DNA of 64,000 bases, from positions 4,325-68,324 of the forward strand of contig CAZEKH010000005.1 in NCBI GenBank assembly GCA_964512925.1, written 5' to 3'. Below, piece by piece: positions 8,473 to 62,026 of this stretch. The DNA is from an uncultured Candidatus Saccharibacteria bacterium (GTDB lineage: Bacteria; Patescibacteriota; Doudnabacteria; UBA920). The first letter of the stretch is position 1. Every line of letters starts with the position of its first letter. The notes below the pieces were generated by a model that ran no database searches, was not told the origin of the DNA, and worked only from the letters and a program-made list of their open reading frames with translations. The position numbers were made by a program, and so were the translations under genes.

Positions 8473-8490
8473 AGTTTTTCAATATAGTTT

Positions 8491-8528
8491 CCCTCCCCAA
8501 GAGTTGGGGAGGGTCAAGGGAGAGGTTG
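8491..8528. repeat. GC-rich nested palindromic element (CCCTCCCCAAGAGTTGGGGAGGG + TCAAGGGAGAGGTTG)
   Basis: perfect 8-bp inner inverted repeat; same family as 5855, 31889, 32284, 59848. Confidence 0.7.
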
Positions 8529-8728
8529 AATTAAAATTCAAATTTACGAATTAAACAAATTTGCAAATGGTTACAAATATTGAGATTAAAACAATAATAA
8601 TTATTTGTAATCATCTGTAAATTTGTCCACATTTGTATATTTGACCAATTTGTAACAATCAAAAACCCCCGCCTTTGGGGGCAAACTTCCATAATCTTAA
8701 GACATTTTTGGCAAAAAGTCAAATATTT

Positions 8729-24725: not shown

Positions 24726-26027
24726 ATGCCGTATTTTGAGATTTTGAAAAAAGCAGAACTCACCCCAGTCCTCTCTTTAGAAAATAGAGGGAGTGATATA
24801 TTCCCCCCCTCTTTAAGCAAAGAGGGCGAAGGGGGAGTTTTGGGAGCTAGGACGGGCATCATCCATACCGCGCACGGGGATATAAAGACCCCGGCGTTTT
24901 TGCCTATTGGCACCAAAGGCGCGGTAAAGGCTGTGACGGCGGAGGAGCTGAAGTTTTGGGGCGCGGACATCATCCTTGCCAATACCTACCACCTTTGGCA
25001 GCGTCCGGGCGACGCTCTCATATATAAAGCCGGGGGGCTGCATAAATTTATGAACTGGCAAGGGCCTATCTTTACTGACTCCGGGGGGTTTCAGGTTTTC
25101 TCGCTCGCAAAAATGAGAAAAGTTTTAGAATTGGGCGTGCTGTTTCAGTTTGATTTAGACGGCAGGCAGGAACTTTTGTCGCCGGAAAAATCCGTTGATA
25201 TCCAAGCTAACTTAGGCAGCGACATCTGCCTCATACTGGATGATTTTCCGGGATATCCTTGGACTTATGAGCGAAGCAAAGAATCCATTGAGCTTACAAA
25301 CCGTTGGGCTGAAAGGGCGATAAAGGAGCATAAGAGAATAGTGACTGATGGCGACCCCATTAACCCCGGCCAAAAGCTGTGGGGGATAGTTCAGGGCGCA
25401 TCTTTTCCGGACTTAAGGGAAATGTCGGCTAAAGCAATGGTTCAGTTTGGATTTGAAGGCTTTGCCATTGGCGGCGTGGCCGTGGGCGAACCTCACGAGG
25501 AGATGATGAAAGCTGTGGAGGTTACCATACCGCATTTACCGGAAAATGCCCCAAAACATCTTTTGGGCGTCGGAACGCCTTTTGACATTGTTCAGGCAGT
25601 AGCGCGTGGCTGCGATACTTTTGACTGCGTGATCCCGACTAGGGAAGCTAGGCATGGAAGACTCTATATAAATAACAAATATCAAATTTCAAATAACAAA
25701 GCAGACAACCTCTCCCTTTCTCCCTCCCCTCATGAGGGGAGGGAAGGGGTGGGGTTGCAGTTTGAAGGCTATAGTACCATCAATATCTTCAACGAAAAGT
25801 TTAAAGAAGATTTTTCCACCATAGACGATCAGTGCGATTGCTATTTGTGCCAGAACCATACCAAGTCTTACCTTAGACATTTGTTTCAAACTGGCGAGCC
25901 TTTGGCGACAAGGCTTGCAACTATGCACAACCTGAAATTTTATTTAAACTTAATGGCTAAAATCAGGAAATCCATCCAATATGATTATTTTGATGAGATG
26001 GTCTTAAACTACAAAGAAATTAAATAG
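24726..26027 (+). CDS. tgt: queuine tRNA-ribosyltransferase carrying two inserted palindromic elements
   Basis: 433 aa; 'LANTYHL', 'DSGGFQV', 'GFAIGG', Zn site CxCxxC..H (DDQCDCYLCQNH...HL). Confidence 0.85.
   Translation: MPYFEILKKAELTPVLSLENRGSDIFPPSLSKEGEGGVLGARTGIIHTAHGDIKTPAFLPIGTKGAVKAVTAEELKFWGADIILANTYHLWQRPGDALIYKAGGLHKFMNWQGPIFTDSGGFQVFSLAKMRKVLELGVLFQFDLDGRQELLSPEKSVDIQANLGSDICLILDDFPGYPWTYERSKESIELTNRWAERAIKEHKRIVTDGDPINPGQKLWGIVQGASFPDLREMSAKAMVQFGFEGFAIGGVAVGEPHEEMMKAVEVTIPHLPENAPKHLLGVGTPFDIVQAVARGCDTFDCVIPTREARHGRLYINNKYQISNNKADNLSLSPSPHEGREGVGLQFEGYSTINIFNEKFKEDFSTIDDQCDCYLCQNHTKSYLRHLFQTGEPLATRLATMHNLKFYLNLMAKIRKSIQYDYFDEMVLNYKEIK
24757..24840. repeat. nested palindromic element inside tgt codons ~12-39 (CCCCCCCTCTTTAAGCAAAGAGGGCGAAGGGGGAG with outer arms AACTCACCCC/GGGGGAGTT)
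   Basis: ~84 nt, multiple of 3, encodes LTPVLSLENRGSDIFPPSLSKEGEGGVL absent from Tgt orthologs as remembered. Confidence 0.65.
25706..25757. repeat. nested palindromic element inside tgt (CAACCTCTCCC..CCCTCCCCTCATGAGGGGAGGG..AGGGGTGGGGTTG)
   Basis: perfect 8-bp inner arms, ~11-bp outer arms; lies in a ~36-aa segment extra relative to E. coli Tgt. Confidence 0.65.
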
Positions 26028-28467: not shown

Positions 28468-29635
28468 ATATCCTATTTTAGTAAAGAAAAAAGAAAACCT
28501 GGCCTATTTGACTGGCGAGGTTTTTGATTTGCGGACACAGGAGTATCTTTTGGTAAAACCGCTGAAGTACGCGGATAAACGCGGAAGCTATACAGGGGTT
28601 GTTGGGTTTGGCAGCGGTCTGGAAAAAATTTCCTGGGCGCCAAAGTCGGACACTTTATACAACATCGGAAAATATGTGAAAGGCTATGAGAAGTTAAATC
28701 TTGAATATGGGTTTACTTTGGGGGAACATAAGTACATAAAAAGCAAGATCAAGAATTTGAGATTGCAGGTAAAAGTCCAGCCGGAACATTCTCCGGTGGA
28801 TGAGATAAGGCAGATAAAGACCCCGGATGAAATATTGAAGATTAAAAAATCAATGGAAATAGTTAAACAGGTATACAAGTATACTAGGAAGCAAGCGGTG
28901 AAGAGCGGGATGACGGAAGCAATTTTGGCAAAATACATTGAAAATTTGGGTTTAAAGTTGGGGGCAGGCGAGCTGGCGTTTCCGGCCATAGTAGCAAGCG
29001 GTAAGAACGCGGCAATGCCACACCACGTACCTACGAAAAAAAGGTTGAAGCCGGGTGAAAGCATTATTTTGGATTTTGGTTTTTTGGCCGGAGGCCAATC
29101 CGCCACTGGCGGAAAATCTTCATCTAACTACTGCAGCGATTTTACTCGTACGGTTTTTATCAAAAAAGTTCCAAAAAAGCTGGAAATAGCTTATAATCAG
29201 GTGGAGAAAGCTTATTTAGGGAGTATGGAATACATTAACTCCCCCAACCCCCGCCCGAACGCCGCAGGCGGGCAGGCCTCTTTGAAAAAGAGGGAAAAAT
29301 TCACCATCTCCTCCTCTTTGACAAAGAGGAGGCAGGGAGGAGTTCGTGCAGAGGGTGTTTACCAAAAATCAGTCGAGATTTTAGCCGAAAAAAAACTGGA
29401 TAAATATTTTATCCACTCGCTTGGCCATGGTACCGGCCTTGAGATCCACGAAAGGCCTTATTTGGGTCCAAAGTCAAAAGACATTTTAAAAGAAGGAATG
29501 GTTTTCAGTATAGAACCTGGCGTGTATTTTCCCGAGTATGGAGGGGTTCGGATAGAAGATTTGGTCTATATGGAAAATGGAAAAGTAAAAAAATTTATAG
29601 AAGTACCAACAGATTTAAAGTCTAATATTTTATGA
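28427..29635 (+). CDS. M24 family metallopeptidase (Xaa-Pro aminopeptidase-like) with in-frame palindromic insertion; start uncertain (ORF opens at 28346)
   Basis: 'HSLGHGTGLEIHERP', 'FSIEPGVY', 'VRIEDLV' M24 metal-ligand motifs. Confidence 0.65.
   Translation: MEHQRLRQLQQEIKYPILVKKKENLAYLTGEVFDLRTQEYLLVKPLKYADKRGSYTGVVGFGSGLEKISWAPKSDTLYNIGKYVKGYEKLNLEYGFTLGEHKYIKSKIKNLRLQVKVQPEHSPVDEIRQIKTPDEILKIKKSMEIVKQVYKYTRKQAVKSGMTEAILAKYIENLGLKLGAGELAFPAIVASGKNAAMPHHVPTKKRLKPGESIILDFGFLAGGQSATGGKSSSNYCSDFTRTVFIKKVPKKLEIAYNQVEKAYLGSMEYINSPNPRPNAAGGQASLKKREKFTISSSLTKRRQGGVRAEGVYQKSVEILAEKKLDKYFIHSLGHGTGLEIHERPYLGPKSKDILKEGMVFSIEPGVYFPEYGGVRIEDLVYMENGKVKKFIEVPTDLKSNIL
29237..29344. repeat. composite palindromic element inside the M24 peptidase gene (three hairpins: CCGCCCG..CGGGC, CCTCTTTGAAAAAGAGG, CCTCCTCTTTGACAAAGAGGAGG; outer arms AACTCCCCC/GGGAGGAGTT)
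   Basis: 108 nt (36 codons) encoding NSPNPRPNAAGGQASLKKREKFTISSSLTKRRQGGV. Confidence 0.65.
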
Positions 29636-31877: not shown

Positions 31878-31888
31878 TTGTTAAATTT

Positions 31889-31925
31889 CCTCTCCAAGTT
31901 TGGAGAGGGGTTAGGGGAGAGGTTG
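31889..31925. repeat. nested palindromic element (CCTCTCCAAGTTTGGAGAGG + GGTTAGGGGAGAGGTTG) whose 3' arm supplies the SD for the next gene
   Basis: GGGGAGAGG ends 7 nt before the ATG at 31930. Confidence 0.65.
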
Positions 31926-31929
31926 TTGT

Positions 31930-32277
31930 ATGAAACGCAAGCCATATTTAGTACATAACGCAAAAAATTTAAGAACGCGTTCAACTATATGGGAAACAAA
32001 ACTTTGGCAATATTTGAGAGGCGGTAGATTTTTTGATTATAAATTTAAAAGACAAGTTGCTATAGAAAAGTATATCGTAGATTTTTGTTGCAATGAAAAA
32101 AAGTTGATCATTGAGTTGGATGGGAGTGGATATCAATTTTCAGAAAAAGATAAAATTCGTGATAAATTTTTTGAAGGGCTAGGTTATAAAATCTTACGTA
32201 TTTGGAATAATGATATTGACAATAATTTTGACGGGGTTCCATTAAGAATTAAACAAAATTTCGATGAAAAAAAATAA
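31930..32277 (+). CDS. DUF559/Vsr-like endonuclease-domain protein
   Basis: 115 aa; 'FKRQVAIEKYIVDFCC...LIIELDGSGY...RDKFFEGLGYKILRIWNND' matches the DUF559 restriction-endonuclease-like fold pattern. Confidence 0.6.
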   Translation: MKRKPYLVHNAKNLRTRSTIWETKLWQYLRGGRFFDYKFKRQVAIEKYIVDFCCNEKKLIIELDGSGYQFSEKDKIRDKFFEGLGYKILRIWNNDIDNNFDGVPLRIKQNFDEKK

Positions 32278-32283
32278 ACAAAA

Positions 32284-32329
32284 ACAACCTCTCCAGGCCT
32301 CCGGCCACCCTCCCCAAACTTGGGGAGGG
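32284..32329. repeat. palindromic element (CAACCTCTCCAGGCCTCCGGCCA + CCCTCCCCAAACTTGGGGAGGGG) immediately 5' of nfo
   Basis: GGGGAGGGG arm lies ~9 nt upstream of the ATG giving MAVGCHVSAAGG. Confidence 0.65.
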
Positions 32330-32338
32330 GAAAGCGGT

Positions 32339-33388
32339 ATGGCTGTGGGTTGTCATGTTTCTGCGGCAGGCGGAGTGTGGAATGCGCCGAAGAATGCAAA
32401 GGATTTAAACTGCGAAACTTTCCAGATATTTACCCGTCCGCCTATGGGCGGACCTGCGCCGAAAATAGACCAGGAGGGAGTAGAGAAATTTAAGATGGAG
32501 ATGGAGAAGTATTATTCTTCATTCCATACAGAAGATGCAGAACCCCTCCCAACCTCCCCTTTGGTAAAGGGGAGGGGTAAGGTAGGTTCCCCCTCTTTTT
32601 CAAAGAGGGGGTTAGGGGGAGTTGGTTTTGTTGTTCACTGCCCGTACATTGTAAATTTTGGTTCAGCAAAGAAAACTACTTTTCACGGATCTATTTCTAT
32701 AGTTTCTGAAGAACTAAAAAGGGCTAATTCGCTTGGAGCTCGGTTTGTTATGACTCACTTAGGCAGCTTTAAGGATTTGGGCCAGGAAAAAGGTATGGTG
32801 CAGGCGCAAAAAGGTTTGGAAGAGGTTTTAAAAAAGTACGAAAGTTCTATAAAAAACAAACAGCCCTCCCAATTTCTTTTAGAGATAGCGGCAGGACAAG
32901 GTGAAGTTATAGGTGATACTTTTGAGGAACTGGCCGAGCTTATGGAGCCGCTAAAAAAATACAAAACTTTCGGGGGAATCTGCTTTGACACTCAGCATGC
33001 TTGGTCTTCGGGATATGATATAACCAAAAGCGAATGGGTAAAACAATTTGAGAAGACTATTGGCCTAAAATGGCTGCGGATGAGCCATATAAACGACTCT
33101 AAAGTTGATTTAGGCGGCAAAAAAGACCGTCACGAGCATATTGGCGAGGGGAAGATAGGAGAAAAGGGGATATATAATTTTATTCGAAATTTAAAATTGA
33201 ACCTGCCTGTCGGCAAGGCAGGGATTGAAGATTTAAACACCCTCTCTACCCGAAGCGGGTCCCTTCTCTCCCAGAAGGGAGAGATTAATAATGTTGTCTT
33301 TGACTCTTTTGCCTTGATTTTAGAAACTGAACATGATAAAGTGAAAACAGACATAAAAATCTTAAAAAAATTAAGGGAAAAAATATAA
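32339..33388 (+). CDS. nfo: endonuclease IV (AP endonuclease family 2) with two in-frame palindromic insertions; longer ORF opens at 32264
   Basis: 'VGCHVSAAGGV', 'ICFDTQHAWSSGYD', 'RMSHINDSK..DRHEHIGEGKIG', 'ALILETE' match Nfo metal-ligand blocks. Confidence 0.8.
   Translation: MAVGCHVSAAGGVWNAPKNAKDLNCETFQIFTRPPMGGPAPKIDQEGVEKFKMEMEKYYSSFHTEDAEPLPTSPLVKGRGKVGSPSFSKRGLGGVGFVVHCPYIVNFGSAKKTTFHGSISIVSEELKRANSLGARFVMTHLGSFKDLGQEKGMVQAQKGLEEVLKKYESSIKNKQPSQFLLEIAAGQGEVIGDTFEELAELMEPLKKYKTFGGICFDTQHAWSSGYDITKSEWVKQFEKTIGLKWLRMSHINDSKVDLGGKKDRHEHIGEGKIGEKGIYNFIRNLKLNLPVGKAGIEDLNTLSTRSGSLLSQKGEINNVVFDSFALILETEHDKVKTDIKILKKLREKI
32541..32625. repeat. double-hairpin element inside nfo (CCTCCCCTTTGGTAAAGGGGAGG and CCCCCTCTTTTTCAAAGAGGGGG)
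   Basis: 85 nt encoding PLPTSPLVKGRGKVGSPSFSKRGLGGVG between conserved KY..S and (I/V)xxH..Y(L/I)xN(L/F)G blocks. Confidence 0.7.
33201..33288. repeat. triple-hairpin element inside nfo (CCTGCC..GGCAGG, ACCCGAAGCGGGT, TCTCTCCCAGAAGGGAGAGA)
   Basis: ~88 nt encoding LPVGKAGIEDLNTLSTRSGSLLSQKGEI, extra relative to E. coli Nfo between GEGxIG and ILETI blocks. Confidence 0.6.
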
Positions 33389-35535: not shown

Positions 35536-37131
35536 ATGAATAGATTTTACCTTACAACCACCCTTCCATACGTAAATTCAGACCCTCACTTGGGGTTTGC
35601 TTTGGAAATGGTTTTGGCGGACACAATAGTTCGGTTTCAAAAATTGCAGGGTAAGGAAGTTTTTTTTAATACAGGCACAGACGAGCATGGTCTTAAGATA
35701 TATCAAAAAGCTTTAGAACGAGGTATAAGCCCAAAAGAGTACTGCGACGAATATGCAGAAAAATTTAAACAGCTGATGCCAGCTTTGGGGGTTTTGCCGG
35801 AGATACATTTCATACGCACCACGGACGAACACCATATAAAAGCCTGTCAGGAGTTTTGGAAACTGGTAGATAAAAATGGCTACATAGAAAAGAAAAATTA
35901 TAAGGTCAAATATTGCGTTGGCTGCGAGCTGGAAAAAACTGAAAGCGATCTGTCAGAAGAAGGAAAATGTTTAGTGCACCCGCATTTGGAAATAGAGATT
36001 CGCGAAGAGGAAAATTATTTTTTTAAGTTTAGCGCTTTCCAAAAACCGCTTTTAGAACTTTATGAAAAACAGCCGGATTTTGTTGTGCCGGATTTTCGGT
36101 TTAACGAGATTAGAGAGTTTGTAAAAAATGGACTTTCTGACTTTTCTATCTCGCGGCTTAAAGAAAAAATGCCCTGGGGCGTGCCTGTGCCGGGCGACGA
36201 CAACCACGTTATGTATGTCTGGTTTGACGCGCTTATAAACTATGTTTCAACGTTGGGTTGGCCAGAATACCACCCCTTTAATTCCCCTCCTATTTTAGGA
36301 GGGGAGGGCCAGAATGGCGGGGAGGTTAGTAATTTATTTCAAGAATTCTGGGGGACAAAAGAAAACCCTAACGGAATACAAATTGCAGGCAAGGACAACC
36401 TCCGTCAGCAGTCTGCTATGTGGCAGGCAATGCTTATGGCTGCGGGCCTGCCGAACAGTAAACAAATCATCATCCACGGCTTTATTAACTCCGGGGGGCA
36501 GAAAATGTCCAAATCTTTGGGCAATGTAGCGGATCCTTATAAAATAATTGAAGATTTAAAAATAAAAGGATTGAATAAACAACAGGCGACAGACGCGCTT
36601 CGGTATTATTTACTCAAAGAAATTCCTACTTTTGAAGACGGGGACTACACTTGGGATAGGTTTTTGGAAGTCTATAACTCCGACCTTGCCAACGGCATTG
36701 GCAACCTAACAAGTAGGATTTTGAAAATGAGCATAGCTAATTCAATTTTTCTCTCTCCAGGCGTGGAGAGAGTCCCCGACTCGTCCGCCAAAGCTTTAGC
36801 GGAGGAGGAAGGGGGAGAGAGGTCGCATGATAGTAATTCCCCAAACGATCAAAAAATTAAAGAGTTTATTTCCTCTTACCACTTAAAACTCGCTCTTGAA
36901 GAAATCTGGAAAGATATAAAATTCTGCGATGAATACATTCAAAAAGAAGAACCATTTAAAGTCGTTAAAGTAGACCCGGAAAAAGCAAAAAAGCAGATAG
37001 AGTTTTTACTTGGTAAACTAAAAGAGATAGCAGAAAACCTGCAGCCGTTTTTACCAGACACTTCCCAGCAAATAACAAACAGTTTAAAACCGCTTTCGGG
37101 AGAAATTCCACGGTTGTTTCCGAGGATATAA
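35536..37131 (+). CDS. metG: methionine--tRNA ligase (short form) with two in-frame palindromic insertions
   Basis: 531 aa; 'TTTLPYVNSDPHLG' HIGH-type motif, 'KMSKSLGNV'. Confidence 0.9.
   Translation: MNRFYLTTTLPYVNSDPHLGFALEMVLADTIVRFQKLQGKEVFFNTGTDEHGLKIYQKALERGISPKEYCDEYAEKFKQLMPALGVLPEIHFIRTTDEHHIKACQEFWKLVDKNGYIEKKNYKVKYCVGCELEKTESDLSEEGKCLVHPHLEIEIREEENYFFKFSAFQKPLLELYEKQPDFVVPDFRFNEIREFVKNGLSDFSISRLKEKMPWGVPVPGDDNHVMYVWFDALINYVSTLGWPEYHPFNSPPILGGEGQNGGEVSNLFQEFWGTKENPNGIQIAGKDNLRQQSAMWQAMLMAAGLPNSKQIIIHGFINSGGQKMSKSLGNVADPYKIIEDLKIKGLNKQQATDALRYYLLKEIPTFEDGDYTWDRFLEVYNSDLANGIGNLTSRILKMSIANSIFLSPGVERVPDSSAKALAEEEGGERSHDSNSPNDQKIKEFISSYHLKLALEEIWKDIKFCDEYIQKEEPFKVVKVDPEKAKKQIEFLLGKLKEIAENLQPFLPDTSQQITNSLKPLSGEIPRLFPRI
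36268..36327. repeat. palindromic element inside metG (CCCCTCCTATTTTAGGAGGGG) flanked by 8-bp direct repeat GCCAGAAT
   Basis: encodes FNSPPILGGEGQNGGEVS; GCCAGAAT at ~36261 and ~36309. Confidence 0.6.
36749..36822. repeat. composite element inside metG (CTCTCTCCAGGCGTGGAGAGAG, CCGCCAAAGCTTTAGCGG, G-rich tail AGGAGGAAGGGGGAGAGAGG)
   Basis: 74 nt encoding LSPGVERVPDSSAKALAEEEGGERS. Confidence 0.55.
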
Positions 37132-38163: not shown

Positions 38164-39219
38164 TTGTCAATGCTAATCGACACCCACGCTCACATTAACT
38201 TTAAAGCTTATGAAGACGACGCAGAGGAAGTTTTGCGCAGGGCTTTTGAGAGTGGGGTTATGGTTATAAACGTGGGGACGCAGTTGGACACTTCAGAGCA
38301 GTCTGTTAGGCTTGCTGAGAGGTACTCTAAAAAAAATATCCCTCCTCACTCCTCCCTTAATTTAAGGGAGGAAGCAGCACAATTACCCCCTCTTAAGGTA
38401 AGAGGGGGTCAGGGGGGTGATATTAAGGCGGTTTATTCCGTAGTTGGACTTCATCCCGTTCATACTTACTCCCAGCACGTAGACGAAGAAGAGAGTCATT
38501 TTAAAACGCGGGAAGAAAAGTTTGACTATGAGGCGTATAAAAAATTGGCACAAAATGATTTGGTGGTGGGGATTGGGGAATGTGGACTTGATTATTTTAG
38601 ATTGAAGATTGATGATTTAAGATTGCCAATAGAACAAATTAAAGAAAATCAGAAACAGGCATTTATGCAACAGGTGAGGCTGGCAAAGGAACTAAACAAA
38701 GCTTTGGTCATACACTGTAGGCCTTCGGAGGGGACGAGTGATGCGTATGAAGATATACTGGCAATTCTGGATTCAGAATTGCAAATTTCAAATATCAAAT
38801 TACAAAATTCAACAAACTCCGCTACACCCTCTACCCTAAACCCTAATCCCTTTCGTTTTGAGATCCACTCTTTTACTGGTACCCCCGACATAGTCCAAGA
38901 GTTTTTAAAGCGTGGCGCGTATGTGGGGCTAAATGGTATAATTACATTCGGAGACCGAAAATCAAAAAATATAGCGACGTCCGCCTCGGGCGGAGATAAG
39001 AGTGGAAACATGGACAATGTTTTGAAAACTGTCCCTTTAGACCGTATTGTCCTTGAAACTGACAGCCCGTATCTTACGCCAAAACCAAACCGGGGCAAAA
39101 GAAACGAGCCTTCCTATGTCCGTTTTGTTGCCGAACATATTGCTCAAGTAAAAAATATAGATTTTGCCCAAGTCGAAGAGCAAACCACAAAAAACGCAAT
39201 TAATTTGTTTAAGTTATAA
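38164..39219 (+). CDS. tatD: TatD-family metal-dependent DNase/hydrolase with in-frame palindromic insertion
   Basis: 351 aa; 'IDTHAHIN', 'VGLHP', 'IGECGLDY', 'ALVIHCR', 'LETDSPYL' TatD blocks. Confidence 0.8.
   Translation: MSMLIDTHAHINFKAYEDDAEEVLRRAFESGVMVINVGTQLDTSEQSVRLAERYSKKNIPPHSSLNLREEAAQLPPLKVRGGQGGDIKAVYSVVGLHPVHTYSQHVDEEESHFKTREEKFDYEAYKKLAQNDLVVGIGECGLDYFRLKIDDLRLPIEQIKENQKQAFMQQVRLAKELNKALVIHCRPSEGTSDAYEDILAILDSELQISNIKLQNSTNSATPSTLNPNPFRFEIHSFTGTPDIVQEFLKRGAYVGLNGIITFGDRKSKNIATSASGGDKSGNMDNVLKTVPLDRIVLETDSPYLTPKPNRGKRNEPSYVRFVAEHIAQVKNIDFAQVEEQTTKNAINLFKL
38335..38424. repeat. nested double-hairpin element inside tatD (CTCCCTTAATTTAAGGGAG, CCCCCTCTTAAGGTAAGAGGGGG; outer arms AATATCCCTCC/GGGGGGTGATATT)
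   Basis: 90 nt = 30 codons encoding KKNIPPHSSLNLREEAAQLPPLKVRGGQGGDIKA between RYS and VYSVVGLHP. Confidence 0.7.
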
Positions 39220-39774: not shown

Positions 39775-42393
39775 ATGTCAAGTAGATATAATCCACAGAA
39801 AATTGAAACTAAGTGGCCCTCCTACGCTAAAGCTACGAAGGGCAGGCAAAAGGTTTCTAAATATAAACCCCAGGAAATTGAACGTAAGTGGCAGTCACTG
39901 TGGTTTAAGAAGAAGCCTTTTTCTGCTGTGGAAAATAAGAGAAAGAAAAAATACATTTTAGTTGAGTTTCCTTACCCTTCGGGAGCGGGTTTACATATGG
40001 GGCACTTAAGGCCGTATGTGGCGGCAGATGTAACTGCTAGGTTTTTGCGCCTTACCGGGCATGAGGTTTTGTTTCCTATGGGCTGGGACGCGTTTGGGCT
40101 GCCGGCGGAAAACTACGCCATAAAAATGGGAGTGCACCCGACCATAACCACCAAGAAAAATGTGGCGAACGCAAAAAAACAAATGTTGTCGTGGGGGCTT
40201 TCTTTTGACTGGAAAAGGGAGATAAACACAACTGACCCTAACTACTACAAATGGACGCAGTGGTTGTTTTTGCAATTTTTCAAAAAAGGTTTGGCGTTTG
40301 AAAAAACCGGACTTATAAACTGGTGTCCAAAAGACAAGACAGGGCTTGCCAACGAAGAAGTAATAGACGGCAAATGCGAACGCTGCGGAACAGTAGTTGA
40401 AAAAAAAGAACTTCGCCAATGGTACCTAAAAATCACAGACTACGCTGAGAAATTATTAGCTGGTCTAAAGGATTTAACCGAATGGCCTGAAGCAGTCAAG
40501 CTTCAGCAGGAAAATTGGATAGGGAAAAAGACGGGCATAAACATTACATATGAGATTGAAGGTAAAAACAAAACAATAACTTGTTTTACCACGCGTCCTG
40601 ATACTAATTTTGGCGCAACTTTTATCGTTATTGGTCCTGAGCATCCTTTGATACAGCAAAATGAACTTGGTATTCAGAACTATGACGAAGTTAAAAGGTA
40701 TATCGAAAAAGCAAAGGAACAGACTGAGCAAGACAGGACTGCGGAGAATCGCAAAAAAACAGGAGTCTTTACTGGGCTATATTGCATAAATACTTTAAAT
40801 AACTACAAGATGCCTTTGTATGTAGCAGATTATGTTCTTGGAAATGTGGGCACAGGGGCTGTGGTCGGGGTGCCTGGGCACGACAAACGGGATTTTGAGT
40901 TTGCGCAAGTTTTTGGTATTGAAGTAAAAAGAGTTGTGCAAAAAAATGTAGACGATACTGGAATTATTGACCATATAGACAAGGTTCAAGAAGAAGAAGG
41001 GAAGATGGTAAATTCCGGTTTCTTAAATGGGCTTGATATTCACGAGGCCACTGAGAAAATAATGGACTATATGGAAAGTGAGGGTTATGGTAAAAGAGTT
41101 ACCAACTACAAACTCCGTGACTGGGTGTTTTCGCGCCAGCGTTACTGGGGAGAGCCGATACCTTTAATTCATTGCGATCCGCCAGCTGGCGGATGTGGCG
41201 TTGTGGCTGTACCGGAAAAAGATTTACCGGTTAAACTTCCAAATGTAAAAAAATACGAACCGACGGGAACAGGAGAGTCGCCGCTGGCTGGCATAGACAA
41301 ATGGGTAAATACCAAATGCCCGAAGTGCAAAGGCCCGGCTAAAAGGGAAACCAACACCATGCCTCAGTGGGCGGGCAGCTCGTGGTATTGGCTTAGGTAT
41401 TTGGACCCTAAAAATACCAAAACTTTTTCCGACATAAAAAAACAGAAATATTGGACACCGGTAGATGTGTATTTTGGCGGGATGGAACACACGACTTTAC
41501 ATTTGCTTTATTCACGTTTTTGGAATTTGTTTTTATACGACCAAAAGCTGGTTACAGAAAAAGAACCTTACAAGAGGCGTTTTCCGCACGGGATAATTTT
41601 GGGCCCAGATGGGGAAAAAATGTCTAAGAGTAGAGGCAACGTGGTGGATCCGCAGAAATTGGTCAAAGAATTTGGCGCTGACGCGGTACGTATGTATCAG
41701 CTGTTTTTAGGTCCTCACGGGGATATGATTGCTTGGAATGACCAGGGGATAGTCGGAGTGAAAAGGTTTTTGGATAGAGTTTGGAGTTGGGCACAGCAAT
41801 TGAATATTGAAGATATAAGATTGAAGATTGTAGACAGTGAGATAGTAGAACGGGAGATAAACAAACTGGTTAAGAAAATCACTGAGGACTTGGAAGCAAT
41901 GCGGTTTAATACCTGTATTTCGGCTTTTATGTCGTTTTTAAATGAAGTCAAAGACGAGCAAGTGTCTTTAGAAACAGTTAGAAAGTTTTTGATTCTTTTG
42001 AGCCCGTTTGCGCCGCATATTGCTGAAGAACTACTTGAGAGAGTTAGAGAGTTAGAGAGTAAGAGGGTGAGTAGATCAGTTAATCAGACAATCAGTAAAT
42101 CAGAAAGTCAGAAAGTCAAAACAAAACTCCCTCCAACCCCCTCTTTGTCAAAGAGGGGGAGCAAGGGGGAGTTCGCAGAGTGGCCTCAGTGGGACGAGAG
42201 TAAAATTTTAGAAGCTACAGCAGAGATCATCGTCCAGGTTAACGGCAAAGTCAAAGGCAAGGTAGTTGTGCCAAACCAAAGCAGTGAAGAAGTGGTAAAA
42301 GAAGCTATGCTGAAACTCCCGCAGTTTTCGTCTCTTGGTGAAATAAAAAGAACAATCTATGTGCCCAATAGACTTATTAACTTAGTTATTTAG
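39775..42393 (+). CDS. leuS: leucine--tRNA ligase; start uncertain (ORF opens at 39667)
   Basis: 'PYPSGAGLHMGHLRPY' HIGH motif, 'GEKMSKSRGNVVDP' KMSKS, CP1 editing domain, C-terminal 'QVNGKVKGKVVV'. Confidence 0.9.
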   Translation: MSSRYNPQKIETKWPSYAKATKGRQKVSKYKPQEIERKWQSLWFKKKPFSAVENKRKKKYILVEFPYPSGAGLHMGHLRPYVAADVTARFLRLTGHEVLFPMGWDAFGLPAENYAIKMGVHPTITTKKNVANAKKQMLSWGLSFDWKREINTTDPNYYKWTQWLFLQFFKKGLAFEKTGLINWCPKDKTGLANEEVIDGKCERCGTVVEKKELRQWYLKITDYAEKLLAGLKDLTEWPEAVKLQQENWIGKKTGINITYEIEGKNKTITCFTTRPDTNFGATFIVIGPEHPLIQQNELGIQNYDEVKRYIEKAKEQTEQDRTAENRKKTGVFTGLYCINTLNNYKMPLYVADYVLGNVGTGAVVGVPGHDKRDFEFAQVFGIEVKRVVQKNVDDTGIIDHIDKVQEEEGKMVNSGFLNGLDIHEATEKIMDYMESEGYGKRVTNYKLRDWVFSRQRYWGEPIPLIHCDPPAGGCGVVAVPEKDLPVKLPNVKKYEPTGTGESPLAGIDKWVNTKCPKCKGPAKRETNTMPQWAGSSWYWLRYLDPKNTKTFSDIKKQKYWTPVDVYFGGMEHTTLHLLYSRFWNLFLYDQKLVTEKEPYKRRFPHGIILGPDGEKMSKSRGNVVDPQKLVKEFGADAVRMYQLFLGPHGDMIAWNDQGIVGVKRFLDRVWSWAQQLNIEDIRLKIVDSEIVEREINKLVKKITEDLEAMRFNTCISAFMSFLNEVKDEQVSLETVRKFLILLSPFAPHIAEELLERVRELESKRVSRSVNQTISKSESQKVKTKLPPTPSLSKRGSKGEFAEWPQWDESKILEATAEIIVQVNGKVKGKVVVPNQSSEEVVKEAMLKLPQFSSLGEIKRTIYVPNRLINLVI
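42036..42173. repeat. composite insertion in leuS 3' region: tandem GAGAGTTA and AATCAG/AAGTCAG repeats followed by nested palindrome AACTCCCTCC..CCCCCTCTTTGTCAAAGAGGGGG..GGGGGAGTT
   Basis: encodes ERVRELESKRVSRSVNQTISKSESQKVKTKLPPTPSLSKRGSKGE between conserved APHIAEEL and WPxWDE blocks. Confidence 0.65.
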
Positions 42394-48538: not shown

Positions 48539-48620
48539 AACATATATCCTTGGCCTTTGATTTTTAAGCTTTTTCAGATTTTACCTATTTTTTTAAGTGC
48601 TTTTTATCTCAGTCTCTGTT

Positions 48621-48644
48621 GTCATTCCCGCGAAAGCGGGAATC
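48621..48644. repeat. TCCCG/CGGGA hairpin element (GTCATTCCCGCGAAAGCGGGAATC)
   Basis: 8-bp perfect stem. Confidence 0.5.
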
Positions 48645-48704
48645 TAAGTTTGAGAGAATTTTCGGTACTAACAGATATAAACTGTTTTTCTGTGGAAAAC
48701 TGCA

Positions 48705-48733
48705 TTTGACAAGTTTTTGCTAGGGGTATAATA
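48705..48733 (+). promoter_or_regulatory. near-consensus sigma70 promoter (TTGACA-N15/17-TATAAT)
   Basis: gcatTTGACAagtttttgctaggggTATAATat. Confidence 0.55.
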
Positions 48734-48739
48734 TATATA

Positions 48740-48893
48740 AAATCTATGCAAAGAAATTTTTCCCACAACCTCATTATTTCTCTCCCGGTCGTCAAGACCT
48801 GGGTGTTTAAAATGCGGGGTAGTGTGGGAAAGAAAAGATAACAGTAGTATAAGTAAAGTTTCCACACCATACCCCGCAAAGAGCGGGTTTTTT
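48740..48893 (+). ncRNA. candidate ~150-nt small RNA between the consensus promoter and an intrinsic terminator (identity unknown)
   Basis: no credible ORF or SD; TTTCCCACAACC pairs GGTAGTGTGGGAAA with alternative partner TTTCCACACC; terminator CCCCGC-AAAGA-GCGGG + T7 at 48871..48893. Confidence 0.35.
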
Positions 48894-49010
48894 TCTGGGT
48901 AAGAGAAACTTAGAGAAATAGAATGTTAGAGAATTAGAGAGATAGAGTGTTAGAGAGGAAGAAAGTTAGCAAAGTAGATAAAATGAACTTTAAAAATTTT
49001 TTGTAGTTTT

Positions 49011-49128
49011 ACCCCCTCTCCCGTGTGGGAGAGGGTTGGGGTGAGGTTTCAGCGATGGTAATAAAACCAAGGTTTGTTATTATCAAACATTATTACCTCA
49101 CCCTAGCCCTCTCCGTGATCGGAGAGGG
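49011..49128. repeat. symmetric composite of two palindromic elements in opposite orientation around an AT-rich inner hairpin
   Basis: CCCTCTCCCGTGTGGGAGAGGG+TTGGGGTGAGGT ... ACCTCACCCTAGC+CCTCTCCGTGATCGGAGAGG. Confidence 0.65.
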
Positions 49129-49475
49129 AATCTGAAAAAGGCTTGAAATATTTATTATTTGTTCTTTAAAACTTAACACCAACCGCCCACAAAAGTTTTT
49201 CCAACAATTGATTTACTGATTATCAGATATTCTGATCAACTTGGAACTTCTTTTGTGTGCAGTCCGTTTGTTTTTATTTCTTTTCCTCCCGCTGGTCGGG
49301 ACGGACACAAGATGGAATCTCATTCCAAAGCACATAAAAACAAAAAAGGCACACGAAAGTTTGGGCAGATCTTGGCTTACCAGCCACTAAAAAATCCCGT
49401 TTTCAAAATTCGGGATTCTGCCCATAGCTATCCGGGCCGCGCAATTTGCTGGCCCATTCGTTCGAGGAGGAAAAA

Positions 49476-49679
49476 GTGGATAGACCAAAGGCATCCACGG
49501 GTGTTGGTCAAAAATTTTGTCAAAGTTGTCGTAGAACTTCAACTTTCATCACCGTGCAAGGTGACGGACATGAGATTGAAGTTTGTGAAAACTGTTTGAC
49601 AAACGGCGAACCAATATCTAGATTCAACGATCCGGATTATGCTTCGGATGTATCGGCCATGAGACTAATCATGGTCTAA
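49476..49679 (+). CDS. hypothetical small zinc-ribbon protein (GTG start after GGAGG SD)
   Basis: 67 aa; CQSC..(17)..CENC; locally GC-rich patch. Confidence 0.3.
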   Translation: MDRPKASTGVGQKFCQSCRRTSTFITVQGDGHEIEVCENCLTNGEPISRFNDPDYASDVSAMRLIMV

Positions 49680-49808
49680 CCAGCAACAGACTTAAAGAGC
49701 AAGTACTTGGGTAGTACCCTGCAATTATACCGCTCTTCAGGTCTTAACCCCGGGGTTCACCAGCTGACCACCATCGGCTAGTGGATCCCGGGCCACTCAA
49801 TTTTTTCT

Positions 49809-49846
49809 TCCTCTCCGTTATCGGAGAGGGTAGGGTGAGGTAACGG
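49809..49846. repeat. palindromic element (CCTCTCCGTTATCGGAGAGG + GTAGGGTGAGGTAACGG)
   Basis: same family, reverse orientation. Confidence 0.65.
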
Positions 49847-50013
49847 ACTCAAAATTCAAATCAGATTTATAAATCATTTAAACTTAAAATCCCCATTTTG
49901 GTTGGGAATGACGGAAAAAACATAAAAATTTCATACCCCCAAAAACCTATTAAATTTTTTGATAAGTTCTTGGGCGCATGAAAGCGCTCGATATTGGTTT
50001 TGTTGGAGGAACA

Positions 50014-50169
50014 ATGAGTGACACTAAACCGCAGGAGCCTGCAATTCGCGCCACAAATAAGGGTCTTAAAAAACCCCGACCACATTACGAGGTCGTAGTA
50101 CACCCGGAAACCCGGAGTGTGGATGTGATCCTAAAACCGTGCGAAGAATGCAAAACCTGCAAGACCTGA
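50014..50169 (+). CDS. hypothetical small Cys-rich protein (C-terminal CEECKTCKT)
   Basis: 51 aa from internal ATG with GGAGGAACAATG SD; followed by strong terminator. Confidence 0.35.
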   Translation: MSDTKPQEPAIRATNKGLKKPRPHYEVVVHPETRSVDVILKPCEECKTCKT

Positions 50170-50179
50170 CAGGTTTTTA

Positions 50180-50252
50180 GGCAGAGCCGCTACTAATTTA
50201 GTCTTTCTTAGACTTTTTTAGCAGAGGCTCTGCCACTATTTTTTTTATTTTT
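50180..50252 (+). terminator. long nested hairpin GGCAGAGCC..AGTCTTTCTTAGACT..GGCTCTGCC followed by T-rich run
   Basis: 9-bp outer stem + inner palindrome + TTTTTTTTATTTTT. Confidence 0.55.
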
Positions 50253-50262
50253 AAATTCGGGT

Positions 50263-50294
50263 GTCAAACTAGTCACATATGTGACTAGTTTGAC
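50263..50294. promoter_or_regulatory. perfect 32-bp palindrome GTCAAACTAGTCACATATGTGACTAGTTTGAC
   Basis: fully self-complementary; architecture shared with 46814..46849. Confidence 0.4.
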
Positions 50295-50308
50295 AGAGGT
50301 TGGGTTTT

Positions 50309-50330
50309 TGGTTGGGATGCTTTGGAATCC
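50309..50330 (-). pseudogene. degenerate copy of the tRNA-Pro 3' terminus
   Basis: TTTTTGGTTGGGATGCTTTGGAATCC vs tRNA TTTCTATGGTCGGGATGCTGGGAATCG. Confidence 0.4.
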
Positions 50331-50452
50331 TTTTCGCTGCGACTCGTAGCCGGGGCGTTATACTCAAGCATTCCAAATAGTCGTGCTTTTCTCATGCACT
50401 TCGATTCCAATAATTTTTATACCAAATAAAAAATACCGAAATTATTTCGGTA

Positions 50453-50473
50453 TTTTTTATTTGGTCGGGATGC
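50453..50473 (-). pseudogene. copy of the tRNA-Pro 3' terminus (acceptor 3' strand + CCA + flanking T-run), 20/21 identical
   Basis: TTTTTTATTTGGTCGGGATGC vs TTTTTTCTATGGTCGGGATGC at 50560..50580; then a non-tRNA hairpin CCCCGAC..GTCGGGG. Confidence 0.5.
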
Positions 50474-50568
50474 CCCGACGACCACTTCGTGATGTCGGGG
50501 TAAACTGGGTATTTCCAACAACCTATAACCATAGAAAAAAGCGCGACACAAGAACACACTTTTTTCTA

Positions 50569-50642
50569 TGGTCGGGATGCTGGGAATCGAACCCAGACTA
50601 CATCCACCCCATGGACGCGTACTACCACTATACTACATCCCG
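50569..50642 (-). tRNA. tRNA-Pro (anticodon GGG), CCA encoded
   Basis: reverse complement: CGGGATG acceptor, D arm GTAT-AGTGGTA-GTAC, anticodon arm CGTCC-ATGGGGT-GGATG, T arm CTGGG-TTCGATT-CCCAG, CATCCCG-A-CCA. Confidence 0.8.
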
Positions 50643-50720
50643 ATTTAAACCTTAGATTAACGATGACTTATAAACTATTTTGTTCAGGTGCTTGTCCGCC
50701 GAAGCCTCGGCGAAGGAGGA

Positions 50721-50744
50721 TACTACCACTATACTACATCCCGA
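50721..50744 (-). pseudogene. 24-nt exact copy of the tRNA-Pro 5' portion (acceptor + D arm), no T arm
   Basis: TACTACCACTATACTACATCCCGA identical to 50620..50643; then hairpin CGCCGAAGCCTCGGCG. Confidence 0.5.
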
Positions 50745-50793
50745 ATTGCAAAACAGATAATATTCTAACAAAACTTAAAGTTATGGGCAAATG

Positions 50794-57005: not shown

Positions 57006-57037
57006 TCCGCCAGAGGCGGATCCCGCCTTGCGGGAAA
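57006..57037. repeat. double hairpin TCCGCCAGAGGCGGA + TCCCGCCTTGCGGGA + A-run (GGATCCCGCYTTGCGGGAAAA motif, copy 1)
   Basis: motif recurs twice in tandem at 59762..59809. Confidence 0.5.
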
Positions 57038-59809: not shown

Positions 59810-59847
59810 TGTAAAATTAAAAAATTGAAAATTAATTAAATACTTAT

Positions 59848-59884
59848 CAACCTCTCCCTGGCCCTCCCCAGGTCTTGGGGAGGG
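59848..59884. repeat. nested palindromic element (CAACCTCTCCCTGG + CCCTCCCCAGGTCTTGGGGAGGG) 18 nt upstream of fusA
   Basis: perfect 8-bp inner inverted repeat. Confidence 0.7.
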
Positions 59885-59902
59885 AAACTATAAAGCAAAT
59901 CT

Positions 59903-62026
59903 ATGGCACGCGAATATTCTATTGAAGTTACTAGAAATATTGGTATCATTGCGCACATTGATGCTGGTAAAACCACTACTACGGAAGGTGTGCTTTTTAA
60001 CACTGGGCAAAAACACAAGATCGGAGCGGTGCACGAAGGCGAAACCACGACTGACTGGATGGAGCAGGAAAAAGAGCGCGGTATAACCATCACCGCGGCT
60101 GCTATCACCTGTTACTGGACCCCTCAGCACGTAAAGCTGGCTCCGGAAACTAAATATAAGATCAACATCATTGACACTCCGGGTCACGTGGATTTTACCG
60201 TGGAAGTGGAACGCAGTTTACGAGTTTTGGACGGCGCAGTTACCGTGTTTGACGGAAAAATGGGCGTGGAGCCGCAATCTGAAACTGTGTGGAGGCAGGC
60301 TGACAAATACGGCGTGCCGCGCATTTGCTCTATCAACAAAATCAACCAAACCGGCGGGGACTTTTACAAGTCTTTGGATTCTATCCATAAACGACTGTCT
60401 CCCAATGCAATGCCAATACAAATCCCGGTTGGGTTTGAAAAAGACATTTGCGGCGTGGTGGATTTGATCCAGATGAAGTCTTACACCTATAAGGATTACA
60501 CGGATAAGCAATTTATAGTCGGCGAAATACCGGCAGATATGTTGGAAAAAGCAAAAGAATGGAGAAATAAACTGGTTGAAAAAGTGGTTGAGTACGACGA
60601 TGCGATGATGGAAAAGTATCTAAGCGGAGTTGAGCTGACTGAAAACGAGCTTTTAACCACCATTCGCAAAGCCACCCAGTCCGGCCAGTTTTTCCCGGTA
60701 ATCGGCGGCGACAACCGCGGTATCATCGTGCAGATGATGCTGGACGCGGTGGTAAACTTCCTTCCAAGCCCGGTAGACCGTGGCCCAGTGAAGGGCGTAA
60801 ATCCGGATACCGAAGCTGAAGAAATAAGAAAGCCGTCTGACGACGAGCCGTTTTCAGCTCTGGCTTTTAAAATCGCCACCGATCCTTTTGTGGGACGACT
60901 GGCTTTCTTCCGCGTATACTCCGGCCATTTGGAAGCTGGAAACTATATTTTGAACGCAACCACCGGCAACAAAGAGCGCGTGGGACGTATCGTGCGGATG
61001 CGCGCCAACGAAAGAGATGAAGTAAAAGAAGTTTTTGCCGGCGACATCTGCGCTTTAGTCGGACCTAAAGATACATTGACAAGCCACACTTTGTGCGACG
61101 AAAAGCATCCTATACTTTTGGGCGCTATCAAATTTGCTGATCCGGTTATCTCTATGTCTATTGAACCGAAGACCAAGGCTGACCAGGAAAAGATGGGTAT
61201 TGCGATGCAGAAGCTGGCGGAAGAAGATCCGACTTTTAAAGTCTCTACCAACGAAGAAACCCAGCAGACTATCATCGCGGGTATGGGCGAACTGCACCTA
61301 GAAATTTTAGTGGACAGGATGCGCCGCGAGTTTAAGGTGGAAGCCAATGTCGGGGAGCCGGAAGTGGCATATAAAGAAACTATCAAAAAGACCGCAGAAG
61401 CTGAAAGCAAATACATCCGCCAGTCTGGCGGACGCGGACAGTACGGCCACGTATACCTTCGCATTGAACCTCAGGAACGCGGCAAGGGGTATGAATTCTT
61501 GGACGAGATCGTGGGCGGTGTGATCCCGAAAGAATACATCAAGCCAATAGATAAAGGCATCCAGGAGTCTGCGGCCAACGGCGTTATTGCCGGATATCCT
61601 TTGGTTGACTTTAAGATCGCTTGTTATGACGGAAGCTACCACGAAGTTGACTCTTCGGAAATGGCTTTCAAAATCGCGGCGTCCAAGGGACTTCAGGAAG
61701 TTGCTAAGAGGGCAGACCCCATCCTTCTTGAGCCAATTATGAAAGTGGAAGTTATTACCCCGGAAGCCAATATGGGAGATGTTATAGGCGACCTAAACGC
61801 CAAACGCGCAAAAATAGACGAGATGACTGACAGAATGCATCTTAAAGTCATCAAAGCTCAGGTGCCTTTGGCTGAAATGTTCGGTTATGCTACAACCTTG
61901 AGAAGCATGACTCAGGGACAAGCTTCCTATACTATGGAATTTGACCACTACGAAGAAGTAGGAAAAAATATCACTGCCAAAATAGTAGAAAAGAGGCAGG
62001 GGATAAATGTGAGAAAGGGCATGTAA
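59903..62026 (+). CDS. fusA: elongation factor G
   Basis: 707 aa; 'AHIDAGKTT', 'DTPGHVDF', 'NKID' (as NKIN), domains II-V. Confidence 0.92.

Follow-up and report, generated by a model that had tools for sequence, protein, structure and literature searches.

The tatD gene of an uncultured Patescibacteria (candidate phyla radiation, CPR) bacterium, at 38170–39219 of a 64,000-nt stretch of contig CAZEKH010000005.1 (hereafter the window), carries an in-frame insert of 90 nt, or 30 codons, at 38335–38424 (+ strand). Going beyond a first-pass annotation that had described a double hairpin here, we find that the insert is a dimer of a 39-nt unit and belongs, as one copy among many, to a large repeat family. 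The family shows presence/absence variation, nesting, clustering and spread across genomes, all signatures of the mobility type. The insert is very probably a tolerated selfish palindromic repeat, comparable to a dimer of repetitive extragenic palindromic (REP) sequences or to a Rickettsia palindromic element (RPE), that is read in frame as a disordered loop.

An in-frame palindromic insert in an intact tatD gene

Homologues begin MLIDTHAH, so the ATG at 38170 is the likely start of tatD, a ycfH-type metal-dependent nuclease gene on the + strand that encodes 349 residues. The gene is intact. The Pfam profile TatD_DNase (PF01026) matches its product at E = 1.2e-63 and covers the whole TIM-barrel domain in two stretches, split at profile position 53/54, of which the second restarts at residue 87 (profile position 54); the alignment of S. 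aureus TatD (PDB sequence) is interrupted at residue 53/54 as well. The family invariants H6, H8, E137, H182, H233 and D298 are all kept in an alignment of 36 Patescibacteria TatD homologues (A1), by which the metal-binding and catalytic motifs are all intact. An AlphaFold (AF2) model of the product (mean predicted local distance difference test score, pLDDT, 77; predicted template-modelling score, pTM, 0.81) superimposes on the solved TatD structures 6l25, 2gzx and 1xwy with target-normalised TM scores of 0.84–0.88. An identical 349-residue protein is encoded by two independently assembled Logan contigs and one NCBI record, and the insert is therefore not an assembly artefact.

Within the insert, two repeat units are inverted with respect to each other, with hairpins facing inward and tags outward. 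The left unit (38336–38374, − strand) reads on the + strand as a C-rich tag followed by hairpin 1 (38350–38372), a perfect 11-bp stem of sequence TCCTCCCTTAA t TTAAGGGAGGA; the right unit (38384–38422, + strand) consists of hairpin 2 (38385–38409), also a perfect 11-bp stem, ACCCCCTCTTA agg TAAGAGGGGGT, followed by the G-rich tag GGGGGGTGATATT, and a 9-nt spacer (38375–38383) separates the two. The tags pair as an outer stem with the two hairpins inside it, the arms at 38335–38345 (AATATCCCTCC) and 38414–38424 (GGGGTGATATT) being 11 nt each and 82% complementary. The double hairpin is thus present as first annotated, and so is the encoded peptide, the open reading frame (ORF) running ...AERYSKKNIPPHSSLNLREEAAQLPPLKVRGGQGGDIKAVYSVVGLHP... 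across the insert (insert-spanning peptide NIPPHSSLNLREEAAQLPPLKVRGGQGGDIK; flanking DNA ...TACTCTAAAAAA on the 5' side and AAGGCGGTTTATTCC on the 3' side). The description of the insertion as exactly 30 codons holds for the palindrome, which is in frame from codon 56, beginning at 38335, but not as a provable indel boundary; the excess over the shortest homologues is ~32–33 residues.

The structure is strong as either nucleic acid. The folding energy of a 110-nt segment spanning the insert is −46.7 kcal/mol for RNA (z = −4.6) and −22.3 kcal/mol for DNA (z = −4.4), and none of 200 shuffles equalled either value. Five of the six reading frames of the insert contain stop codons; the sixth, the only open one, is the frame used. 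Residues 58–82 have pLDDT < 50 and no secondary structure in the AF2 model, where they lie between the helix at 39–53 and the strand at 88–92. By this model the insert lies at the surface, in the α2/β3 loop of the TIM barrel, where it is compatible with the fold, and its product would be a Pro/Ser...Gly/Arg-rich, predicted-disordered loop of 30 residues. The orthologue alignment, the split of the Pfam match and the mapping onto the model all support an in-frame palindromic insertion in a TatD loop, as had been proposed. That proposal appealed to E. coli TatD, in which it gave the flanking residues as contiguous (QYSSCWSTAGVHP); closer homologues make the point better.

The insert is a dimer of a 39-nt repeat unit

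A scan of the window for perfect stems, the only kind covered by our hairpin scans, returned 19 hairpins whose 5' arm is C/T-rich; mirror-type hairpins were absent. The unit of ~39 nt that they define comprises two pyrimidines, a 23-nt hairpin (CCCYCYYYNN, loop, NNRRRGRGGG), 2–5 nt of linker (often TTA, CTA or TCA) and a G-rich, GGGRGRGTT-like tag with the variants GGGAGAGGTT, GGGGGAGTT and GGGTGAGGT. We built a covariance model (R1) from 18 units of the window, relatives and phage contigs, excluding both tatD units; its seed is a gapless alignment (A4), an earlier RNAalifold fold having mixed the hairpin with an alternative pairing of arm and tag. Run on the window with filters off, and with E-values that are rough owing to a shortened calibration, R1 gave 21 full-length matches at E < 0.01 on ~20 hairpins. 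Because it matches both halves of the tatD insert (right unit, 45.4 bits, E = 1.1e-8, + strand; left unit, 36.5 bits, E = 1.3e-6, − strand), the insert consists of two inverted units 9 nt apart.

In the window alignment derived from R1 (A5), 98.2% of stem cells are paired, 81 cells have changed on both sides and 3 of 341 are G-U, figures that lean towards Watson-Crick pairing as the seed stems were Watson-Crick only. Where stems differ, it is through paired changes from C-G to T-A, and G-T/G-U intermediates are almost lacking. This near-absence of wobble pairs suggests that what is constrained is the palindrome in both DNA strands and not an RNA. Across 131 unique instances, among the matches listed, a sharp-edged conserved block, TY-hairpin-NNA-GGGGAGTTATGA, stands between random flanks.

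Seven other dimers align end to end with the tatD insert, and the eight together have a mean column identity of 70% (A6). The partners are those of nfo and tgt in the window, one in an aminoacyl-tRNA synthetase (aaRS) gene of the relative L085, an intergenic one in metagenome locus L129, two intergenic ones on the IMG/VR viral contig L100, and one in the leucyl-tRNA synthetase (LeuRS) of L109, from an unrelated metagenome, where the dimer is again in frame (...NPSPPPLTLRGGDETVTPLKVRGARGVM...). Dimers measure 81–88 nt, with gaps of 9–10 nt in nfo, tgt, L085, L129 and L109 and of 3 nt on L100. They have terminal inverted repeats, for which the consensus of the other dimers is CATAACCCCTCC...GGGGAGTTATG. 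Both canonical lengths divide by three: a dimer is 87 nt long, and a single hairpin bearing both tags 51 nt.

In-frame and intergenic copies in the window

R1 supports seven in-frame elements in six housekeeping genes (tgt twice, map, nfo, metG, tatD and leuS), the others lying in spacers. Besides the tatD copy, all on the + strand, these are a dimer near the N-terminus of tgt (24755–24842; E = 1e-4, 4e-4) and a single hairpin with both tags in the same gene (25708–25757; E = 4e-6, 2e-4), an element in the methionine aminopeptidase gene map (29277–29346; E = 2e-8, 1e-5), an 87-nt dimer in the endonuclease IV-like nfo (32539–32625; E = 5e-8, 2e-9), an element in metG (36267–36325; E = 7e-6) and a 51-nt single hairpin with both tags in leuS (42123–42173; E = 8e-9, 4e-6). 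Palindromic segments inside ORFs were in a stop-free frame in nine of nine tabulated cases, one of which (nfo_N, 32294–32343) was later reclassified as intergenic. The chance that all of them would be open under random frames is ~0.004, a product multiplied by hand from the frame table that the reclassification does not affect, since the factor of nfo_N is 1.0. Such use of open frames fits translation with a survivorship filter and argues against splicing or ribosomal bypass.

Intergenic units precede bipA (8489–8527, + strand; E = 3e-7) and fusA, encoding EF-G (59848–59886, − strand; E = 1.5e-7), and two more, with tags facing and 43 nt apart, lie at 49012–49130 (E = 2e-6, 1.5e-5). The leaders of fusA (59846–59905) and bipA (8470–8531, − strand) are near-identical over ~60 nt, in the order C-tag, hairpin CCCTCCCCA..TGGGGAGGG, then AAACTATA...CTATG, and neither start codon has another Shine-Dalgarno-like sequence nearby. 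A rule by which copies in genes have two tags and copies in spacers one is true of the window; it was dropped on account of single-tag copies in genes of L085 and L086.

The tatD product is ~70 residues longer than its shortest homologues because of the palindromic insert and two further inserts of other kinds, with which the low-confidence AF2 segments 211–224 and 261–278 coincide. Separate repeat types were seen in this gene. A second, smaller palindrome family, TCCGCC-N3-5-GGCGGA, encodes peptides of the 'SA.GG' type and has copies at 38980–38994 (tatD), 29099–29113 (map), 41178–41193 (leuS), 57006–57020 and 61416–61432 (fusA); the tatD copy is part of a GDRKSKN..TSASGGDK insert that is patchy among orthologues, and the leuS copy coincides with a 4-residue insert (DPPAGGCG). 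The third kind of insert in tatD is A+T-rich low-complexity DNA of the CAAATTTCAAATATCAAAT type (38782–38815), which encodes ISN.K/QISNNK peptides, recurs at 25676–25700 in tgt, where it adjoins a hairpin unit, and has ISN-like counterparts at the same site in some TatD homologues.

Homologues and syntenic orthologues

Many Patescibacteria TatDs in alignment A1 run '...AEKY(S/E)(E)-G-VYAVVGLHP', so that helix α2 passes straight into the motif with nothing between. P0002, the closest TatD homologue (69%), is without the insert, as are P0005, P0011, P0016 and others; the translated loci L003–L005 have neither palindrome nor extra residues at the loop. The insert is lacking in the three species-representative genomes that are closest, which bear the label Doudnabacteria or 'Saccharibacteria'. 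On this alignment the insertion is the derived state. The protein database searched contains no relative of between 69% and 100% identity.

We compared four syntenic relatives (L083–L086), which share the order tgt-aaRS-map-M16-nfo-...-metG-tatD-leuS, gene by gene. Across tgt, map, nfo, metG, tatD and leuS their orthologues form a mosaic of presence and absence: the leuS element and the first metG element are missing from all four, both tgt elements and the nfo dimer are missing from L084, and the nfo, map and tatD loops hold differing versions in different genomes, those of map in the same loop as in the window. All four have nested hairpins of their own in the tatD loop, with outer arms of the AACTCCCCC...GGGGGAGTT type, and in L085 a different mini-repeat is nested within one hairpin arm. 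Extra residues at this loop are thus encoded by the same kind of nested hairpin DNA in 4/4 syntenic relatives, and homologues free of the palindrome are also free of the residues. Relatives carrying the same residues without palindromic DNA, which would have told against the original annotation, were not found.

At the 3' junction in L083–L086 (~10195–10222), the tag of the insert (GGGGGAGTT) overlaps and partly encodes the native G-V-Y-A (GGAGTTTATGC), whose DNA resembles the end of the repeat module, GGGGAGTTATG; the junction in the window's own tatD differs. Such microhomology may, speculatively, make the tatD loop a hot spot. Among the neighbouring genes, the window's LeuRS (39784–42393) is without a ~150-residue α/β-hydrolase-like domain that is present inside the LeuRS of all four relatives.

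The unit in metagenomes and phages

We scanned 84 loci (1.36 Mb), chosen solely for encoding a TatD relative, with R1. All 42 matches at E < 0.01 fell within ten Patescibacteria-type loci, and the ~40 loci of other phyla gave none. This restriction to the CPR is a property of the 84-locus sample; matches in high-G+C viral contigs selected for the endonuclease family DUF559 (below) point to a wider family beyond the CPR.

The 19-nt core of tatD hairpin 2, CCCTCTTAAGGTAAGAGGG, occurs exactly in 16 IMG/VR contigs, which hold 53 R1 matches in 126 kb. Two of these loci, L092 and L093, encode portal and major head proteins (PHROGs) and are confirmed tailed-phage fragments; it is in these two that phage genes were checked, and IMG/VR 'viral' calls may include cellular DNA. 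A 32-nt pattern with 29 specified bases, CCCCTCTTAAGGTAAGAGGGGNNNGGGGAGTT, which joins the consensus hairpin CCCCTCTTAAGGTAAGAGGGG to the tag GGGGAGTT through NNN and thereby includes the 19-nt core and omits the diverged tag of tatD, was found exactly in more than 120 metagenome stretches among the matches listed. Together with its presence on phage contigs, this makes the unit a very widespread and previously unnamed repeat. Outside the Patescibacteria lineage it is, as judged from its sequence context, mainly an intergenic hairpin-plus-Shine-Dalgarno-like module at gene starts, and the copies in genes are a surviving minority.

Units also form dense clusters of up to ~15 in 1.6 kb (L129, 3526–5143; L113, 1458–3287; L194; L146), with a ~101-nt tandem duplication of units in L129. 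BLAST of a 37-nt module against GenBank phages gave no match, for which low-complexity filtering may be the cause, and a phage capsid from a unit-bearing contig had only distant (<60%) matches, to phages of unrelated hosts.

A DUF559 endonuclease gene accompanies the units

A gene for a 115-residue DUF559 endonuclease, a Vsr-like PD-(D/E)XK protein (PF04480, E = 1.7e-33), lies at 31930–32277 (+ strand) between M16 and nfo. Directly upstream is a repeat unit (31886–31925, + strand; E = 0.00097) with its G-rich tag 7 nt before the ATG, and directly downstream an intergenic C-tag and hairpin (32294–32331, within 32294–32343; E = 0.025, 0.12). An alignment of orthologues and the sequence here make it most likely that nfo starts at ATG 32339 and not at 32264, the ORF being over-extended (32264–32338) across a repeat unit. 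In L085 the called N-terminus of the DUF559 gene, MSLSSPFEERIKERLQ, is likewise a translated unit.

Searches with tblastn found DUF559 genes or fragments in the window, L004, L023, L035, L084 and L085, and further in L120, L123 and L166. In every case a unit lies no more than a few tens of bases away, and most of these genes or fragments have units on either side; those in the tatD-selected loci adjoin units in six of six cases. The gene between the unit clusters of L129 also encodes a DUF559 protein (PF04480). Cassettes bracketed by units lie at 6145–6581 of L023, 2817–3250 of L084, 2318–2900 of L085, 3526–4476 of L129 and 1335–1913 of L227, arranged as [tag-hairpin]..gene..[hairpin-tag] or as dimer-gene-dimer. 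In the window the cassette has M16 and nfo as its neighbours, and in L084 and L085 aaRS and map; in L083 and L086 that region is without it. This variable position implies that the cassette is itself mobile or has been lost piecemeal.

The association recurs in a sample of 80 viral loci chosen solely for DUF559 homology, in which 20 of 27 distinct R1 matches fall within 200 nt of DUF559, a zone that makes up 14.6% of the sequence (binomial P = 6e-12; conservative per-locus P = 4e-7). According to published work (PMC3424549, PMC3239194), the clade of DUF559 includes Vsr, which nicks DNA at T/G mismatches, as well as a homing endonuclease. The scarcity of G-T intermediates in the stems is intriguing beside this family's T/G-mismatch nicking enzyme. 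The arrangement parallels REP-flanked genes for REP-associated tyrosine transposases, with another nuclease fold. DUF559, its gene being bracketed by the units, is the best candidate for mobilising them, and we infer that the nuclease acts on them; it might move units, home into them, or merely use them for expression.

A broader proposal, which we advance tentatively and think somewhat more apt to be wrong than right, is that selfish elements of an undescribed class exist and that the tatD insert may be their miniature form, devoid of the gene. The autonomous form would be a DUF559 gene of ~115–120 residues bracketed by inverted hairpin-plus-tag units. Such a 'REPtron' with another nuclease fold would be common to phages, CPR bacteria and bacteria of higher G+C content; its units would double as hairpin and ribosome-binding-site modules at gene starts, and its spread would be a main source of the extra loops by which CPR housekeeping proteins are lengthened.

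Origin and maintenance of the tatD insert

The most reasonable explanation for these observations is that a non-autonomous palindromic repeat landed in, or was copied into, tatD. Copies would multiply within genomes and move between sites by a DNA-level process on hairpins or cruciforms, possibly via the DUF559 nuclease, and insertions into genes would persist only where they preserve the frame and are structurally harmless. The tatD insert would have been retained because it is harmless, its peptide probably being without function of its own.

Several points weigh against this explanation. The databases searched contain no strain pair with more than 69% identity, so that an empty site cannot be cleanly compared with a filled one. 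In each of the four closest syntenic relatives the tatD loop contains the element in one version or another, which could mean selection at the site beyond mere tolerance. We found no consistent target-site duplication in nine complete elements inspected by eye ('GCAG' beside some elements was considered as one and rejected as inconsistent between elements) and no transposase, REP-associated tyrosine transposase (RAYT) or integrase among the scanned window ORFs of at least 120 residues. Among the matches listed, an ATG directly follows 71 of 82 copies of the exact pattern and long open frames hold only ~5 of 145 copies, which may mean that the unit itself functions as a module of hairpin and ribosome-binding site. 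Translation of the tatD loop, finally, is something that we infer from its open frame.

Some of the same facts would suit hairpins that are a selected nucleic-acid signal in the tatD-leuS transcript, acting in RNase processing or stability, pausing or internal ribosome loading, with the peptide as a by-product. The G-rich tags resemble Shine-Dalgarno sequences, the conserved block terminates in GGGGAGTTATGA, phage and metagenome units mostly stand just before a start codon, bipA and fusA share their unit-bearing leader, and the tatD loop is consistently filled in the syntenic group. We nevertheless regard such a signal as improbable at this site: copies occur in either orientation and at unrelated positions in six housekeeping genes, with presence/absence variation among orthologues; the closest TatD homologue does without one; three G-U pairs in 341 stem cells would be unusual for a constraint at the RNA level; and the tag has decayed in the tatD copy, which has GATATT in place of GTTATG.

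It is very unlikely that the 30-residue Pro/Gly-rich loop is an adaptive feature of TatD, for example an interaction surface, to which the palindrome is incidental. Several related TatDs do carry P/S...G/E/R-rich peptides at the same loop, but its length and sequence differ in every relative, it is predicted to be disordered, and very similar peptides (for example PSLSKRG and PPLKVRG) occur in tgt, nfo, leuS, map and a foreign LeuRS; it is the DNA complementarity that is perfect, the peptide being unconserved. More doubtful still is a local origin by replication slippage or template switching, not by copying from a repeat. Perfect, Watson-Crick-only stems are what fold-back synthesis would yield, yet this origin is already contradicted by the match of both halves to a model made from other copies, the identity of the 19-nt core in unrelated contigs and the alignment of the whole dimer with dimers of other genes and genomes.

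We give very little credence to the segment being left untranslated, whether through excision from the mRNA or through a ribosomal skip like the hop in phage T4 gene 60 or at mitochondrial 'byp' elements. In its favour is a strong, self-contained structure whose outer stem would join the flanks; however, the tabulated in-ORF segments, with the reservation made above for nfo_N, keep frame and avoid stops, which would be needless if they were skipped, no matching take-off and landing codons stand at the borders of the insert, and no Rfam intron or ribozyme matches it. Just as implausible is a role as DNA-uptake signals for the competence machinery of a DNA-scavenging bacterium, which the density of ~0.3–0.8 units per kb, the copies within genes and the type IV pilus genes in the window might recommend, but which sits badly with several sub-families with different stems, with gene copies that arise as insertions, not substitutions, and with the abundance of units on phage contigs and their link to an endonuclease gene.

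Other features of the window

Besides tRNA-Pro and small Cys-rich ORFs, a 2.2-kb ORF-poor stretch (48540–50790) contains three repeat units. Duplicates of a 22-nt segment of the tRNA (CTACCACTATACTACATCCCGA) stand at 50622 and 50723. An integrated element may have left this stretch as its scar; Rfam at permissive thresholds gave no match at 48.4–50.9 kb. On the window as a whole, only tRNAs reached the Rfam gathering score, with chance-level noise around the tatD insert, and four unit-rich phage loci gave nothing at E ≤ 1.

Comparison with known systems

Palindromes that code in frame have classically been regarded as a curiosity, one found in Rickettsia and a few other bacteria. The tatD insert and its companions point to the same process in a Patescibacteria genome, in six housekeeping genes within 64 kb, and offer a concrete DNA-level source for many of the odd low-complexity loops of CPR proteins. 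They also call for caution in the annotation, alignment and structure prediction of these proteins, as ORF starts can be over-called across units (nfo, one DUF559 gene). The consistent bracketing of DUF559, for its part, suggests a testable role for a large family of 'unknown function'.

RPEs are characterised in published summaries of the work of Ogata et al. (2000, 2002; PMC10969869, PMC3733652) as Rickettsia-specific families of ~100–150 bp. Like them, the repeats described here are short palindromes found both in spacers and in frame inside unrelated, intact housekeeping genes, at sites compatible with the fold. They differ in their 39-nt unit, 81–88-nt dimer and CPR host and in being found on phage contigs as well, and membership in the described RPE families is unlikely, as judged by unit length and host.

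The resemblance to REPs, to their short-spacer doublets (REPINs) and to REPtrons (PMC3733652, PMC3116915, PMC3337134) lies in a small imperfect palindrome with a conserved tag in many copies, in the occurrence of singlets, short-spacer inverted dimers and clusters, and in a single small nuclease-type gene bracketed by repeats; the clusters recall those of REPs in enterobacteria, the bacterial interspersed mosaic elements (BIMEs). The GTAG/CGTC tag of REPs was tested for and is absent, which rules out membership in the GTAG/CGTC super-families: the tag here is G-rich and Shine-Dalgarno-like, GGGGAGTT(ATGA) or GGGAGAGGTT, preceded by a variable NYAG, a consensus drawn from 18–30 units (A3/A4) and the 131 instances mentioned above. 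The bracketed gene is a DUF559 PD-(D/E)XK endonuclease and not an IS200/IS605-type tyrosine (HUH) transposase (RAYT). Unlike strictly extragenic REPs, the tatD copy and six other elements of the window lie in ORFs, although an extragenic location is not absolute for REPs either, published intragenic REP dimers encoding 20–30 residues (PMC3733652).

MITEs, the miniature inverted-repeat transposable elements, share with the family a small size, a non-coding and non-autonomous appearance and terminal inverted repeats, here the two tags, and in-frame fusions of MITEs are known. The units differ in being far below typical MITEs (70–300 bp), and no consistent target-site duplication was seen by eye in the nine elements inspected. 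Nor was a parent insertion sequence with matching ends and a transposase found; matching units enclosed no gene other than DUF559.

The double-hairpin elements (DHEs) found in mitochondria of the fungus Allomyces are likewise paired hairpins, rich in G+C, that spread in a genome richer in A+T. Sponge mitochondria have repetitive hairpin elements (RHEs; PMC2800124). Our family shares with both the G+C-rich hairpin pairs in an A+T-richer genome, in a bacterium and not an organelle, and no sequence relation is claimed.

In the literature searched, we found no paper that connects repeats of the REP, MITE or RPE type with CPR bacteria, nor one that connects repeats with DUF559. The phenomenon is known. 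What is undescribed, as far as that literature shows, is the family of units, the range it covers in the CPR and in phages, the Shine-Dalgarno-like tag and the association with DUF559. I-Bth0305I, an intron-encoded, Vsr-like homing endonuclease (PMC3239194), shows that this clade can be selfish and promote mobility; the DUF559 gene described here differs in being free-standing, bracketed by hairpins and known from sequence. If DUF559 does act on the hairpins, it would represent a second, independent solution to the propagation of REP-type repeats.

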